Both the position numbers and the translations under genes were made by a program. The notes under the pieces are model-generated. The model was not told the origin of the DNA, ran no database searches, and saw only the letters and a program-made list of their open reading frames with translations. A stretch of DNA of 46,145 nucleotides from a virus: the IMG/VR virus record IMGVR_UViG_3300037087_000773. The stretch is one strand, 5' to 3'. This document shows, piece after piece, positions 4,699 to 18,493 of the stretch. Each line of letters opens with the position of its first letter. The stretch's first letter is position 1.

Positions 4699-5724
4699 TT
4701 ATTTTTTTCTAATTGTGAGATTTACAATATCACCAGCGTCATGATTCATCATGATTTTGACTAATTCCTTGAATTTGACCTTTGCTTCCCATCCTAAGAT
4801 GTTTTTTGCCTTGGTAGAGTCTCCCATCAGTAACTCAACTTCTGATGGTCTGAGGTACTTAGAATCAGTTTCTATGACAATATTTCCCTTATCATCCAAT
4901 CCCTTTTCATTTAAACCAGATCCTACCCAATGTATTTTACCACATTTCAAATATTGAAAAGCTTCTTCGACAAATTCTCTATTTGAATGACATTCACCTG
5001 TTGATATAACAAAATCATCTGGTTTATCCTGTTGTAGCATCAAATACATCACCTCAACATATTCCTTCGCATATCCCCAATCTCTTTTTGAATCTAAATT
5101 TCCAAGTTTAATTGGTGTACCAGTAAGATACCATTTTTTCAAACCCATAGTAATTTTTTTGGTTACGAATGTTTCTCCACGGCGTTCTGATTCATGATTG
5201 AATAATATTCCATTGGATATAAATAAATTATAAGATTCTCTATAATTACGACAAATCCAATAAGCATATAATTTAGCCACTCCATAAGGACTTCGAGGAT
5301 AAAATGGTGTAGTTTCTTTCTGTGGTGTTTCTTGAATTTTTCCAAATAATTCTGATGTTGAAGCTTGATATATTTTTGTATGTGGACAATGTTTTTTTAC
5401 GGTTTCGAGAAGGGATAAGACACCTAATCCGTCCACTCTAGCGGTATAATCTGGAAGTTCAAAACTAACAGCGACATGGGATTGGGCTGATAAATTATAT
5501 ATTTCATCAGGCCTTATATCTTTCACAATCGAATCCAAAGAAATATTATCTGTAACATCCCCATAATGTAAATGTAATTTATCAAAAATGTGGTCTATTC
5601 TACCAGTATTAAAAGAACTGGAACGTCTTATGATACCATGAACCTCATAACCTTTTTCTAATAAAAATTCAGCTAAGTATGAACCATCTTGTCCGGTAAT
5701 CCCCGTTATCAATGCTTTTTTCAT
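4699..5724 (-). CDS. gmd: GDP-mannose 4,6-dehydratase (short-chain dehydrogenase/reductase, SDR)
   Basis: N-terminus [46 protein letters not shown] is the canonical GMD Rossmann plus RR-loop signature. YxxxK is present ([10 protein letters not shown]). The C-terminal GMD region aligns. Length is 341 aa. The ATG was verified at 5722-5724. Confidence 0.9.
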
Positions 5725-5733
5725 TCATATCGA

Positions 5734-16600: not shown

Positions 16601-18493
16601 GATGGATATTTACAAAAGATGATAGAACAAATTGACAAAAATACAGGGATGGTTGTTTGTCGTATTCATTTTAATGATAAAGAATGGCTGAATTTAATAT
16701 TACCCCCTGATGATAGATTGATACCAGCCAAAATAGATCATCTTTCTATCCTCTTTAAAAGTGATATAGCAAAGAAATTTACATGGGATAATGATTGGGG
16801 TCAAGATCATCGTTTTATAAATAATTGTGAAAGATTATGTAATGAAAAAGGATTTGAAATAAAATATATTCCAAATATTCTTGCCAATCATCGTTATTTA
16901 AAAAGAGAGAATAGAATTGACGAATTATTAAAAGAAAAAAGATTAGAACAATATGATGATGATAATGGTGTAAATAGATTATTTGGATTAAAAAACATGA
17001 TAGATGAAAATCTAAACAAAGAATCTATAATATGTGAAGTAGGATCGTTTGATGGTAAATCCTCTGAATTGTTTGCACTATTAACTAAAAAGGTTTATTG
17101 TGTTGATCCTTGGGTTTTATATTCTCAGATAGATGATGAATCTATGATTAAATCCGAAGAAAAATTTGATAAATTATTGAATAAGTATAACAATATAATT
17201 AAAATAAAAAATTACAGTATAGAAGCCTCGAAAACATTTGAAAATGAATTTTTGGATTGTGTTTATATTGATGGTAATCATGATTATGAACCAGTTAAAC
17301 AAGATATCTTACATTGGATTCCAAAAATAAAAAGGGGAGGGTTCATAAGTGGACACGATTATCATTTTGAGGGAGTAAGAAAATCTCTAAATGAATTATT
17401 TCAAAATATTCCGATAAAAGTTTATTCCGACCAAAGTTGGGTTGTAAAAATAAATGATTATAGAAAGGGTGAAAAACCACATAAAGAAGTAGTCATTATG
17501 ACATCTCACCCAAACTATAAAATGTCAGAAGATATAACTAAACTGGCCATTAATTCTTTTGATAATAAAGATGTGATATTATCTGTACATTGTCCAGTAT
17601 CCATAGAATTACAAAATAAAGTAAAATATTTATTATATGATAAAAATAATCCCTTAATTCGTCATGATTATTATAATCAAAGTTGGTTTGAAACGACTGA
17701 ATATTATTCATTGATTAAACTTCATTATAATGATAATGATTTTCAACACGCTTTGGCTGTTTATATTAATTATTACAATGGTATAATGTATGCTAAATCA
17801 TTGGGTTATACGACAGCTATTTGTACCAATTTTGATATAGTTTTCAGTAAAGAAGATCTGAAAATAGTTGACGAAAAAATTAGTGAAATGTATCAATCTG
17901 GAAAAAAATCATTCTTTATGACATCAAATCCGAGTGAGGGAATACATTATAAAACAATTTTCTTTATAACAGATGTGGATTTCTTTTTGAATAATTTTAA
18001 ATATGTAACCAATGAGAAAGATTATAACAAACTAACCAGAGAAGTAGGATCTGAAACAAATTGTTTAGAGAATTTTTTCTATGAAACTTTAAAAAATTCA
18101 GATAAATTATTACTTCAACAAATAGAAGAAAAGGAATTATTTTCAAAAAGTAAGGTGAATATGTTCTCAAATATAGAATATTTCACTATTCTCCCACTGA
18201 GAGATGATAATGAACATTTTGTTATTTGGTTTAGTTCAGCAAATTCGATTGATAATAGGTCTATTGGAATCCATGTCCTAAAAGGAAGGGAAGCTATTTT
18301 TAGCCACAGTGGAAATATCAGTAAGGATTATAAATTCTATAAGGAAATAAAATTCGAGAAGGACTGTAATTATGAAGTAATATGTAATGTATATTACGAT
18401 GATATGGTAAATCAGAAAACAATTACCGTCAATAACGATGTTTTCTATAACAAATTAAAAGATTACGGAGATTTCTGGAAGAAATCAGTATAA
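13646..18493 (+). CDS. 1615-aa multidomain glycan-tailoring enzyme (FkbM-MT / GT-A / unknown / class-I MT / GT2 / class-I MT / unknown)
   Basis: Around aa 10-190, FkbM-like (AGQDVFAYYI...GYFIDIGSGTPIGMNNTYLLEKNGWNGLNFD). Around aa 205-330, GT-A domain (ICLYTMCINEEEFLPFFLDYYTNYVGVDKIVIYDGGSTD). Around aa 700-870, class-I SAM methyltransferase of Methyltransf_24 type (HFVEIGSWLGKST...DFVFIDGAHDYESVKKDINDWYPKVKDNGVIAGHDY). Around aa 890-1100, GT2 (ISIIIPTYNRPDILTECINSVLKQNYENLEIL...FLDDDN). Around aa 1130-1250, a second Methyltransf_24 domain (ICEVGSFDGKS...CVYIDGNHDYEPVKQDILHWIPKIKRGGFISGHDY). The aa 440-690 region and the C-terminal roughly 330 aa are unassigned. Confidence 0.8.
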   Translation: MNQIDDIIKSSNSQAGQDVFAYYICDTNNGYFIDIGSGTPIGMNNTYLLEKNGWNGLNFDFWDNRKSYEESRRTPYIMEDVNKINMSNFLEKMNSPKVVDYLSIDIDENTDYFLSNNFPTDYEFKVITFEHNLYLDGDSLKNKSKNFFIEHGYTLLCENVALSFTSKYDVFEDWYINEKYIDIKKFEFLKSCGLHFTEIINKIKEHELNNIKICLYTMCINEEEFLPFFLDYYTNYVGVDKIVIYDGGSTDKSHSIINSYPNTELILEHDDKTDSFRDLRIWNEEWKKCRNDYDWMIVCTPDEFLYHPDLRNKLIEYKKNGITIPNVEGFDMISLNHPNYDKGNYLPNQIKRGIKDSTFLNKNIIFNPKEIDINYHVGCHGCNPTGNIKFSEEYDFKLLHYKWISYDFLMRDSKRKYERLSDKMLETGAGGHYKVFIQKTYEEYVQRYNQTIQVLEEEKDINLFWHCYLINNWVKIFKNQLNKIVDSGLYEKLNTIHLHYFGKPEEVKILSELISRYDKIKSYEIEDNFYEYPTIKHIHKFSSVNNSYVGYIHLKGVWSSMNKEKNIEAINSWRKCLEYFNIEKWDNCISKINEGYEVVGALYNYNEKDPLFSGNFWWTTTDYIKKLKYPQYDPSKNPYPMDDGTWCRVECEKWINTIPNKFYNFYIPKDYGFYQVPIDENDYKDKKTINHIYENIEGWFDFEKIYSDMVNRFPNGSHFVEIGSWLGKSTSYMGAEISNSGKKIKFDSIDTWEGSKGSWDEQVQNDTINNLNISLYQKFLENVRPVKDYINPIQGWSYDVVNRYEDKSLDFVFIDGAHDYESVKKDINDWYPKVKDNGVIAGHDYNIHDWPGVVQAVNEFFNEGNVSSVKKDTWSWIVDKKEFEDSKQKNHKISIIIPTYNRPDILTECINSVLKQNYENLEILICHDGFFSEFYCYDYKTTDKRIFYYNTDNQYNNLGAAQRNMMISKVTGDYILFLDDDNILYDGYLQKMIEQIDKNTGMVVCRIHFNDKEWLNLILPPDDRLIPAKIDHLSILFKSDIAKKFTWDNDWGQDHRFINNCERLCNEKGFEIKYIPNILANHRYLKRENRIDELLKEKRLEQYDDDNGVNRLFGLKNMIDENLNKESIICEVGSFDGKSSELFALLTKKVYCVDPWVLYSQIDDESMIKSEEKFDKLLNKYNNIIKIKNYSIEASKTFENEFLDCVYIDGNHDYEPVKQDILHWIPKIKRGGFISGHDYHFEGVRKSLNELFQNIPIKVYSDQSWVVKINDYRKGEKPHKEVVIMTSHPNYKMSEDITKLAINSFDNKDVILSVHCPVSIELQNKVKYLLYDKNNPLIRHDYYNQSWFETTEYYSLIKLHYNDNDFQHALAVYINYYNGIMYAKSLGYTTAICTNFDIVFSKEDLKIVDEKISEMYQSGKKSFFMTSNPSEGIHYKTIFFITDVDFFLNNFKYVTNEKDYNKLTREVGSETNCLENFFYETLKNSDKLLLQQIEEKELFSKSKVNMFSNIEYFTILPLRDDNEHFVIWFSSANSIDNRSIGIHVLKGREAIFSHSGNISKDYKFYKEIKFEKDCNYEVICNVYYDDMVNQKTITVNNDVFYNKLKDYGDFWKKSV

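Follow-up and report, generated by a model that had tools for sequence, protein, structure and literature searches.

A stretch of 46,145 nucleotides from a virus (IMG/VR record IMGVR_UViG_3300037087_000773; "the window" hereafter means this whole stretch) carries two clusters of sugar genes that are rich in methyltransferase (MT) domains, and the question it raises is what these genes build and to what the product is attached. A first-pass annotation, made from the sequence alone and placed at positions 4699-18493, had predicted a highly O- and C-methylated glycan containing a 6-deoxyhexose. Our analysis points to a two-part cytoplasmic glycan factory of soluble enzymes, which would make a C-methylated GDP-6-deoxyhexose and an O-methylated glycan and for which a phage protein is the most likely acceptor; we put the probability of this reading at roughly 0.6. 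The enzymology of C- and O-methylation implied by the earlier prediction fits by homology and context, and the product and the acceptor are still predictions. The two clusters span ~4.7-41.2 kb (36.5 kb) and enclose ~6.5 kb of unrelated genes, which does not agree with the compact locus of about 30 kb described before.

We found eight sugar-type MT domains in the window, seven of them by Pfam scans that took in every open reading frame (ORF) of at least 100 aa and one, at the N-terminus of g13646, by profile comparison. The earlier count of at least eight over both clusters was therefore correct. The genes that carry these domains are as follows (GT, glycosyltransferase):

7439..8698, plus strand: g7439, a TylCIII/TcaB9-type NDP-hexose 3-C-methyltransferase (PF08484, E 3.2e-44, 151 bits; PF13489, 51 bits).
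8716-10632, plus strand: g8716, 638 aa, with two FkbM domains (PF05050).
13646-18493, plus strand: g13646, 1,615 aa, seven modules in the order MT-GT-GT-MT-GT-MT-GT.
28441..29403, plus strand: g28441, a cupin module fused to an FkbM MT (aa 137-295, nt 28849-29325; PF05050, E 6.4e-12, 46.4 bits).
29410..30102, plus strand: g29410, a stand-alone FkbM MT (PF05050, E 1.3e-20, 74.6 bits).

The TylCIII/TcaB9-type enzyme that had been placed at 7439 is borne out by Pfam and by comparison with PDB, where the D-mycarose 3-C-methyltransferase 4rv9 scores best (E 2.9e-37, with aa 64-416 aligned) and TcaB9 is matched with E 1e-28. Its catalytic H-E-H segment reads CHEHIYY and is aligned to YHEHLSY of a PDB relative. 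The FkbM domains that had been assigned twice to g8716, to the C-terminus of g28441 and to g29410 were all recovered, in each protein above the PF05050 gathering cut-off of 22.7 bits. Those of g8716 occupy aa 141-322 (nt 9136-9681) and aa 458-623 (nt 10087-10584); the whole protein matches PF05050 in two stretches with E 6.3e-35 (121 bits) and its first half alone with E 1.3e-16 (61.7 bits). The ~100-aa leader ahead of each g8716 domain had no match, and the leader plus the first FkbM domain recur as the C-terminus of a modular protein, P0006. Because the two halves share only ~25% identity, we rejected a recent internal duplication as the origin of g8716.

Degenerate copies without S-adenosylmethionine (SAM) motifs, a possibility raised in the first-pass annotation, were not found, and by motif integrity the methyltransferases are not degenerate. 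Motif I of the FkbM domains reads DIGANIG and EVGAGPP in the first and second domain of g8716, QIGSNDG in g28441, DIGSWHL in g29410 and DIGSGTP in the N-terminal module (A) of g13646. The second motif (D-x-E/Q-G) reads CDCEGGE, VDTEGWE, IDAEGYE and IDVQGAE in the four canonical domains and IDIDENT in module A, a variant that is kept within its own family. In the two Methyltransf_24 (MT24) modules of g13646, D and F, every residue near-invariant among 25 and 28 homologous copies is present in the window copies; the conserved set comprises ExGxxxG (E721/G723/G727 and E1131/G1133/G1137), an acidic residue that follows strand 2 (D750 and D1154), DGxHxY and GHDY. Hidden Markov models (HMMs) of all modules, run against all window proteins, revealed no further MTs hidden among orphan ORFs.

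The largest of these proteins, g13646, was divided into the following modules, all on the plus strand:

13646..14260 (aa 1-205): module A, a shortened, divergent FkbM-like MT domain.
14261..15010 (aa 206-455): module B, a GT2_4/GT92-like GT-A glycosyltransferase (PF13704, E 2.4e-12).
15011..15715 (aa 456-690): module C, a cryptic GT-A-fold domain, probably the PF27674/DUF8361 region.
15716..16300 (aa 691-885): module D, an MT24/TylF-like O-MT (PF13578, E 1.6e-22, aa 720-845; PF05711, E 2.4e-7).
16301..16930 (aa 886-1095): module E, a GT2 glycosyltransferase (PF00535, E 1e-29).
16931..17470 (aa 1096-1275): module F, a second MT24 O-MT (PF13578, E 6.7e-15, aa 1131-1239).
17471..18493 (aa 1276-1615): module G, a cryptic GT-A-fold domain followed by a C-terminal beta-sandwich.

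The two MT24 domains previously noted in g13646 are well supported, scoring 80.8 and 56.3 bits (cut-off, 26.3), and modules D and F are homologous to each other (hhalign, 100%). Invariant residues of module D are E721, G723, G727, D750, D815, H818, Y820, H843, D844 and Y845. The FkbM domain reported at the N-terminus has to be qualified: module A alone has no Pfam match, and it is FkbM-like by its family profile, as a shortened and divergent form. A search of 1.84 billion representative proteins gave a family of 3,496 representatives, mostly stand-alone proteins of ~200 aa, and 11 of the 40 members that were aligned match PF05050 (best E 3e-7). The family profile aligned with a profile of bona fide FkbM domains (hhalign, 94% probability, E 1.3e-7, 131 columns) over motif I and the 'ID-L-D-EG' and 'E-H' motifs, with ~55 central residues skipped, and the family HMM matched the window's own FkbM domains. 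Module A keeps all residues that are invariant in its family; its identity to the four window FkbM domains in two-sequence comparison is 22%. Because family members, profile alignment and family HMM all point to FkbM, we counted module A as the eighth MT-type domain and consider it a probable shortened, FkbM-like domain rather than a canonical member.

Among the GT modules, the two seen by Pfam retain acidic motifs for binding of nucleotide or metal: B keeps its YDGGSTD and DEF motifs over 32 homologues, and E has an invariant D979-D980-D981. No sequence relationship links modules C and G to the other g13646 modules, and the window copy of module C has no Pfam match. AlphaFold models built on homologue alignments gave both of them a Rossmann-like nucleotide-diphospho-sugar transferase (GT-A) fold, and on these models the two formerly 'unknown' segments of g13646 are GT-A-fold domains. 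No DxD motif is present in module C, in which an invariant H-x-K-G takes its place; in module G the position is occupied by an invariant N-F-D. Metal-independent GT-A enzymes exist. In the chlorovirus protein A064R, domain 2, which is of GT-A type, needs no cation (PMC9614988). Compared with predicted viral structures, module C had M1IF74 (638 aa) as its best neighbour (E 7.5e-17, TM 0.79, 23% identity), and its other viral neighbours were glycosyltransferases of Klosneuvirus, Harvfovirus and cedratvirus and small phage proteins.

A search of 5.8 billion proteins gave 30 relatives of g13646 with lengths of 912 to 2,295 aa, all metagenomic or from metagenome-assembled genomes and none with an informative name. 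Modules B, C, D/F and E vary in number and order among them, sometimes together with FkbM or hexapeptide acyltransferase domains, and 22 of the 30 end with module G. By its sequence relationships, g13646 thus belongs to a metagenome-only family of module-shuffled GT/MT proteins. Weak tblastn matches to g13646 were also found in 14 Mycobacterium phage records.

Shuffling extends to g28441. Its cupin module (aa 1-104, nt 28441-28752) has no Pfam match, and the cupin call of the first-pass annotation is nevertheless supported by an invariant G-x5-H-x-H-x4-E-x6-G motif and by a profile of eight homologues of the module, which matched only cupins in PDB (E 0.002-0.2) in alignments across the motif. 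The cupin-FkbM fusion is confined to three protein clusters, and elsewhere the module, at 50-60% identity, is fused to nucleotidyltransferase (PF00483) or HAD domains. The fusions that had been called novel are part of a broader pattern, in which g13646 is one of ~30 module-shuffled proteins and the cupin module is mobile.

The sugar donors of such a glycan would be supplied by the following genes:

4699..5724, minus strand: g4699, a 4,6-dehydratase of GDP-mannose (GMD; PF16363, E 3.4e-134; TIGR01472 gmd equivalog, 498.3 bits against a cut-off of 415).
6267..7394, minus strand: g6267, a 375-aa conserved orphan between the GMD and C-methyltransferase genes.
10635..10883, plus strand: a DUF4254 protein of 82 aa (PF14063 on the called gene of a matching contig).
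10873..11664, plus strand: g10873, a 263-aa short-chain dehydrogenase/reductase (SDR), short in length and GMD/RMD-derived.
25032..26399, plus strand: g25032, a beta-phosphoglucomutase-like HAD domain and a sugar-1-phosphate nucleotidyltransferase (PF13419, E 1.3e-29; PF00483, E 3.7e-11).
27317..28444, plus strand: g27317, a sugar-1-phosphate nucleotidyltransferase and a HAD phosphatase (PF12804, PF03767, PF13344; NCBIfam nucleotidyltransferase models).

The gmd gene was correctly named, as its product scores above the equivalog cut-off. The window ORF 10816-11664 corresponds in the contig gene calls to two genes, those for the DUF4254 protein and for g10873. As single sequences, g10873 and g28441 had no match in PDB. 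The family of g10873 comprises 978 protein clusters, of which a few members have PF16363 or PF01370, and several members carry the JGI label 'nucleoside-diphosphate-sugar epimerase'. In PDB its profile had GMDs as top matches, aligned across the catalytic region (E 0.004), its HMM matched the window's own GMD (E 6.5e-7), and the invariant residues E87, Y110 and K114 correspond to the S/T-x-E and YxxxK motifs. We propose that g10873 is the 4-ketoreductase, and possibly also the epimerase, for a C-methylated GDP-4-keto sugar.

A cassette of C-methyltransferase, g10873 homologue and DUF4254 genes, in this order and with overlapping or abutting ends, was found on two unrelated contigs of 446 kb and 11 kb. 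GMD-type genes lie near the cassette on both, and a GT10 gene adjoins it on the 11-kb contig. A third contig, of 623 kb, has a g10873 homologue together with two GMD-like genes, GT10, GT2, MT24 and GT1. The recurrence of the cassette and the identity of g10873 support a route from GDP-mannose through GDP-4-keto-6-deoxymannose and 3-C-methylation to 4-reduction. From this context, that is, GMD in the same cluster and a cassette that recurs with GMD-type genes, we infer that the substrate of g7439 is an NDP-4-keto-6-deoxyhexose. The 446-kb and 623-kb contigs come from soil, and their related sugar clusters are accompanied by Thg1, GIY-YIG and HNH homing endonucleases and an N6/N4 DNA methyltransferase; they suggest further megaphage lineages with similar glycan loci.

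Both nucleotidyltransferase proteins match 4evw in PDB (g25032, E 1.4e-23; g27317, E 2.9e-15), an entry with no assigned sugar or nucleotide specificity, and g25032 also matches beta-phosphoglucomutases (~1e-12). For g6267 we found no Pfam, NCBIfam or PDB match, not even with a three-sequence profile; by eye, its N-terminus looks like a GT9-type start.

Matches to Pfam, NCBIfam and PDB agree with the statement that GT and nucleotidyltransferase genes adjoin the MT genes, but the GT content had been under-counted. GT-type domains number at least 12: four in g13646, GT4, WavE, two GT2, two GT25, GT10 and a weak GT1-like domain. Those outside g13646 are encoded here:

12033..13004, minus strand: g12033, a GT-B (GT4-like) glycosyltransferase (PF13524, 25.2 bits against a cut-off of 25; PF13692, E 5e-5), so that the earlier 'GT4' holds marginally.
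30102..31822, plus strand: g30102, a WavE-family transferase of lipopolysaccharide (LPS) type (PF07507, E 5e-14), and g30893, weakly GT1-like (PF13524, E 0.0011, below cut-off).
35221..41214, minus strand: a transferase block of g35221, g35901, g36621, g37319, g37977 and g40369.
Within the block, minus strand: g36621 and g37319, GT2 (PF00535, E 1.4e-8 and 2.6e-6).
Within the block, minus strand: g37977, 799 aa with two GT25 domains (PF01755, E 4.5e-31, two stretches).
Within the block, minus strand: g40369, GT10 fucosyltransferase-like (PF00852, E 5e-7).

Two members of the block, g35221 and g35901, are orphans that look GT-like by eye. GT10 enzymes use GDP-fucose as donor, and the family uses GDP-6-deoxyhexose donors. 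For this reason g40369 is a plausible transferase for the C-methylated GDP-sugar.

Taken together, these assignments allow a pathway to be proposed. g4699 would convert GDP-mannose to GDP-4-keto-6-deoxy-D-mannose, g7439 would transfer a methyl group onto C-3 of GDP-4-keto-6-deoxymannose, and g10873 with its DUF4254 partner would reduce the 4-keto group, possibly with epimerisation, to give an evalose/virenose-type GDP-3-C-methyl-6-deoxyhexose. g25032 and g27317 would activate two or more additional sugars, and a role as sugar isomerase or epimerase is possible for the cupin of g28441. The GT-type domains would assemble an oligo- or polysaccharide, the hydroxyls of which would be methylated by seven O-MT-type domains (five FkbM-type, two MT24/TylF-type). 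The alternating MT-GT order of g13646 suggests add-then-cap steps on one polypeptide, by analogy with A064R. The acceptor would most likely be a phage protein, for example a virion surface component.

Six of seven overlapping metagenome contig stretches, taken from several independent samples, match the window with 100% identity; the seventh has 99.8%, with 52 differing positions in 24.8 kb, too few per gene for dN/dS. Genes for g13646 and for a vault-like protein are found on several metagenome contigs, the longest of them 736,551 bp. The best phage matches in GenBank were LR756501.1 and LR756503.1 ('uncultured phage', 735,411 bp), followed by LR756500.1 (462 kb). A 735-kb genome was the largest known phage at the time of its description and was placed in the Mahaphage clade with a predicted Bacteroidetes host (Al-Shayeb et al., 2020; PMC7162821). 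By these sequence matches the window is part of a megaphage genome of ~736 kb close to members of this clade, LR756501.1 being taken as the 735-kb genome. Neither the window nor the retrieved flanks contain a gene for terminase or capsid. It has 28% GC, is densely coding with many 4-bp start/stop overlaps, and contains no tRNA genes.

A giant-virus origin, which the 28% GC and vault-, Spt5- and GINS-like matches might suggest, was rejected on four grounds: genes overlap by 4 bp, NusG is of bacterial type and scores above its equivalog cut-off, this protein matches a PHROG antiterminator, and the best GenBank matches are huge phages. A bacterial chromosome or prophage is not supported either, as the flanks consist mostly of orphan genes and the contig matches the 735-kb phage record. 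The vault-like protein (window 1-2424, minus strand, 807 aa; Vault_3, E 2e-11; MVP shoulder, E 6e-26; weak SPFH/Band 7) has a counterpart of 69% identity over 98% of its length in LR756501.1 and one of 50% in LR756500.1, and it has no PHROG match.

The glycan genes have counterparts in this second megaphage. Comparison of window proteins with LR756501.1 by tblastn, at 285-327 kb, gave the following identities:

GMD (g4699): 74.5%.
C-methyltransferase (g7439): 76.8%, plus a 26% paralogue.
g6267: 59% and 42%, two copies.
DUF4254 protein: 86.6%.
SDR (g10873): 64%.
NusG: 56%, inside the glycan region (29334-29867 of the compared LR756501.1 stretch).
MT24: 53%; FkbM: 35%.
Double-GT25 protein (g37977): 49%, at 330 kb.

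The glycan region of LR756501.1 (295-332 kb) also encodes a modular protein of the composition B-C-E-C-G. Over ~25-50% protein divergence, at least 36 kb of methylation-rich glycan genes have thus been maintained, which argues for function.

We next consider where the glycan is assembled. By a hydropathy scan, none of the real genes of the window encodes a polytopic membrane protein. Two of these genes encode singly anchored proteins, and only the first lies inside the glycan clusters:

13061..13501, minus strand: g13061, 146 aa, with an N-terminal membrane anchor and a coiled-coil-like remainder (Pfam matches sub-threshold only).
3336-3794: g3336, with a C-terminal membrane anchor.

The first-pass annotation had pointed to flippase and polymerase genes, or their absence, as informative, and the absence holds within the window: no Pfam family of a flippase, polymerase, ligase, ABC exporter or initiating phosphoglycosyl transferase was found there or in the 10-kb flanks. 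Because neither these functions nor a polytopic membrane protein are encoded, assembly by soluble enzymes in the cytoplasm is the simplest reading.

The same gene set bears on remodelling of the host envelope, in which the phage enzymes would act at the inner membrane face on host undecaprenyl-phosphate-linked intermediates, with an initiating transferase, flippase and polymerase of the host, and would change the LPS, O-antigen or capsule of the infected host, which is probably a member of the Bacteroidota; one use might be to prevent superinfection while a long infection cycle runs its course. The predicted host phylum depends heavily on capsular polysaccharides. Bacterial loci for LPS, O-antigen and capsule typically contain GMD, WavE, GT25, GT4, GT2 and FkbM, and related sugar clusters of T4-like cyanophages are annotated as LPS-related. 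Phage glycosyltransferases that change the host serotype are a known category (PMC12619734), and a structure survey of huge phages files glycosyltransferases under 'host manipulation' (10.1101/2025.02.27.640493). However, none of the five membrane-linked functions named above is encoded in the window or its flanks, all of the transferases lack membrane segments, and multidomain GT-MT proteins are best precedented by a cytoplasmic viral enzyme that glycosylates protein. A rare-sugar pathway private to the phage would, moreover, need host polymerases and flippases that accept that sugar. We therefore regard envelope remodelling as unlikely, though it deserves serious weight.

Two other acceptors were considered. 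The glycan could be placed on phage DNA, as a sugar hypermodification of 5-hydroxymethylpyrimidines that protects against host restriction. Phage clusters are known that place mono- to trisaccharides on 5-hydroxymethylcytosine by GTs resembling LPS and teichoic-acid enzymes (10.1101/2023.12.21.572611), and genes for a NUDIX hydrolase, a weakly nucleoside deoxyribosyltransferase-like protein and DeoC are interspersed with or flank the sugar genes, with DHFR and guanylate kinase just outside. Such systems, however, need a cytosine methyltransferase and a TET-like 5mYOX dioxygenase (10.1101/2023.12.21.572611), and because Pfam found neither in the window we consider DNA glycosylation very improbable. 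The at least 12 transferase domains, the C-methyl deoxyhexose pathway and the seven O-MT-type domains also far exceed what the reported mono- to trisaccharides would require. Alternatively, the product could be a small glycoconjugate, for instance a methylated oligosaccharide or a glycolipid, that is free or bound to lipid rather than joined to protein, DNA or an envelope polymer, as the TylCIII, TylF and FkbM families take their names from enzymes that tailor macrolides and the sugars of secondary metabolites. We give this idea very little credence: Pfam identified no polyketide, non-ribosomal peptide or lipid-scaffold genes in the window, and the number of transferases implies a large glycan.

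Several points weigh against cytoplasmic synthesis of a methylated glycan for a phage protein, a reading that rests wholly on homology and genomic context. We found no candidate acceptor protein, and the window covers 46 kb of ~736 kb, so that genes for export or initiation could lie elsewhere or be supplied by the host, in which case the envelope would be the target. Individual enzymes also deviate from their models. Module A is without ~55 residues of canonical FkbM and module C is without DxD, and either could be non-catalytic. g10873 has a weak SDR match (E 0.004) and a shortened nucleotide-binding N-terminus. The TcaB9 structure reportedly has an N-terminal zinc-binding cysteine cluster, whereas g7439 has no cysteine among its first 60 residues and the PDB alignments begin only at query aa 50-64; g7439 is a variant without the N-terminal segment of its solved relatives. 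TylCIII-type enzymes have, furthermore, been characterised on dTDP-sugars and not on GDP-sugars (PMC3539893).

The proposed synthesis can be compared with known systems. The capsid N-glycan of the chlorovirus PBCV-1 owes its assembly and methylation to A064R (GT-GT-MT) and A061L (PMC9614988). A064R resembles g13646 in being a soluble viral polypeptide that combines GT-A domains with a class I SAM MT methylating the sugar just added (PMC9614988); a separate small MT, A061L, adds a second methyl, PBCV-1 also encodes a GMD, and M1IF74, the neighbour of module C, is as long as A064R (638 aa), length alone being compared. In contrast to A064R, which belongs to a nucleocytoplasmic large DNA virus, g13646 comes from a relative of tailed phages with a bacterial host and has seven domains instead of three, its MTs are of MT24/TylF and FkbM type, a C-methyltransferase pathway accompanies it, and its glycan is predicted from genes. 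Giant-virus glycogene clusters, such as those of Cafeteria roenbergensis virus (38 kb) and the Megavirinae fibril, likewise combine nucleotide-sugar synthesis, GTs and sugar MTs with many bifunctional fusions (PMC9614988; PMC10117803). They belong to another virus realm and host domain, and the term 'C-methyl' is absent from the review PMC9614988. The density found here, eight MT-type and at least 12 GT-type domains in 36 kb, at least matches that of giant-virus clusters.

For the sugar itself, the closest parallel is the GDP-route to virenose (6-deoxy-3-C-methyl-hexose) in the LPS of Coxiella burnetii, with GDP-mannose, GMD, a TylCIII-like 3-C-methyltransferase and a 4-ketoreductase/epimerase (PMC3539893); the same enzyme types occur in the first cluster. 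That route is itself an in-silico proposal, its reductase candidates are RMD or GMER, whereas here a truncated 263-aa GMD-like SDR with DUF4254 would act, and its product enters an exported O-antigen. Among phages, mycobacteriophage GTs glycosylate capsid and tail-tube subunits in the cytoplasm (Freeman et al., 2023, summarised in PMC12619734), but with few GT genes only, two in phage Maravista (PMC11256854), and no nucleotide-sugar pathway or multidomain enzyme was seen for them in this comparison. T4-like Synechococcus phages have full-length homologues of g25032 with 55-57% identity. In cyanophage S-CAM9, g25032 (56%), g32032 (43%, from the region next to the sugar cluster) and, more weakly, g26646 and g12033 (25%, annotated as GT) have counterparts, and other cyanophages have relatives of the cupin module, MT24 and FkbM. 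The S-CAM9 cluster differs in being ~10 kb long with four annotated GTs and no annotated MT, GMD, C-methyltransferase or multidomain enzyme.

Glycan synthesis by viruses has been worked out chemically mainly in giant viruses of eukaryotes (algae and amoebae), and phages have so far provided simple examples, namely glucosylation of DNA, conversion of serotype and a small number of GTs that act on mycobacteriophage virions. Here, machinery of giant-virus scale is found in the largest known class of phages, with a predicted private pathway for a rare branched-chain sugar. The text of Al-Shayeb et al. (2020) contains neither 'glycosyl' nor 'polysaccharide' (PMC7162821), and a later survey of huge phages treats glycosyltransferases only in passing (10.1101/2025.02.27.640493). 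New are the megaphage setting, the unusually many MT domains, the C-methyl-sugar cassette and the module-shuffled GT/MT family. This family is a natural library of linked add-and-cap catalysts, in which two modules can now be read as GT-A-fold and one of them probably as DUF8361, and the cassette of C-methyltransferase, short SDR and DUF4254 offers a concrete route to C-methylated GDP-sugars. Heavy methylation would give a hydrophobic, glycosidase-resistant glycan, with consequences for virion stability, evasion of recognition by hosts or predators and receptor masking in Bacteroidota-type hosts. More tentatively, and with the odds somewhat against it, we suggest that the virions of megaphages, or some other structure built by the phage, carry a coat of complex, C- and O-methylated glycan. 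Phage enzymes alone would make it, among them assembly-line proteins with up to seven alternating GT and MT domains; shuffling of their modules among lineages would diversify the glycan, and module C/DUF8361 would share ancestry with giant-virus GTs. If the glycan is indeed on the virion, self-encoded virion glycosylation would be convergent or shared in the largest viruses of bacteria and eukaryotes.

Further genes lie between and around the two clusters. Between them is a full-length NusG gene:

22770-23309, minus strand: g22770 (TIGR00922, 161.8 bits against 135.7; phrog_6386 antiterminator, E 5e-32).

A polysaccharide-operon paralogue of the RfaH/UpxY/LoaP type was rejected for g22770, since these models scored far below their cut-offs and the generic NusG model passes; speculatively, it could be a processivity factor for these operons and help to transcribe such long gene arrays. 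A TnpB gene (IS605 OrfB / Cas12f-like; 19963-21207, plus strand) also lies between the clusters. In the 99.8%-identical sister contig, TnpB is called with 424 aa instead of 414 aa and is surrounded by different small ORFs, which suggests recent mobile-element activity. At 23744-24927 and 23328-23756 (both minus strand) we noted a DUF559/HNH-like endonuclease, a weakly nucleoside 2-deoxyribosyltransferase-like protein and a NUDIX hydrolase. Genes for DHFR, guanylate kinase and ferredoxin lie just left of the window, and nucleotide-metabolism genes are interleaved with the sugar genes. The 150-aa product of g32032 (32032-32484, plus strand) has no Pfam match, and its start 'MKLISHRGN...PERENSP' resembles by eye a glycerophosphodiester phosphodiesterase motif.

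A DeoC-type aldolase gene at 41304-42275 (plus strand) scores 113.5 bits with TIGR00126, just below the cut-off of 117.3. Its product has Gln/Pro/Ser/Thr-rich tails at both ends, and the last 30 residues are 87% S/T/P/Q, the sole such tract in the window; the tail could be a linker or, conceivably, a glycosylation site. The DeoC-like protein is one of six otherwise unrelated proteins in which the motif [FY]-x-[EQ]-[FY]-[IVL]-x-[ED] (for example MKKFNEFVNE) begins within the first 12 residues. Their ORFs start at 18824, 19354 and 41304 (plus strand) or end at 42783, 43061 and 45109 (minus strand). The motif has seven matches in all 95 ORFs, against 0.9 expected at N-termini, and could be a targeting or processing tag.

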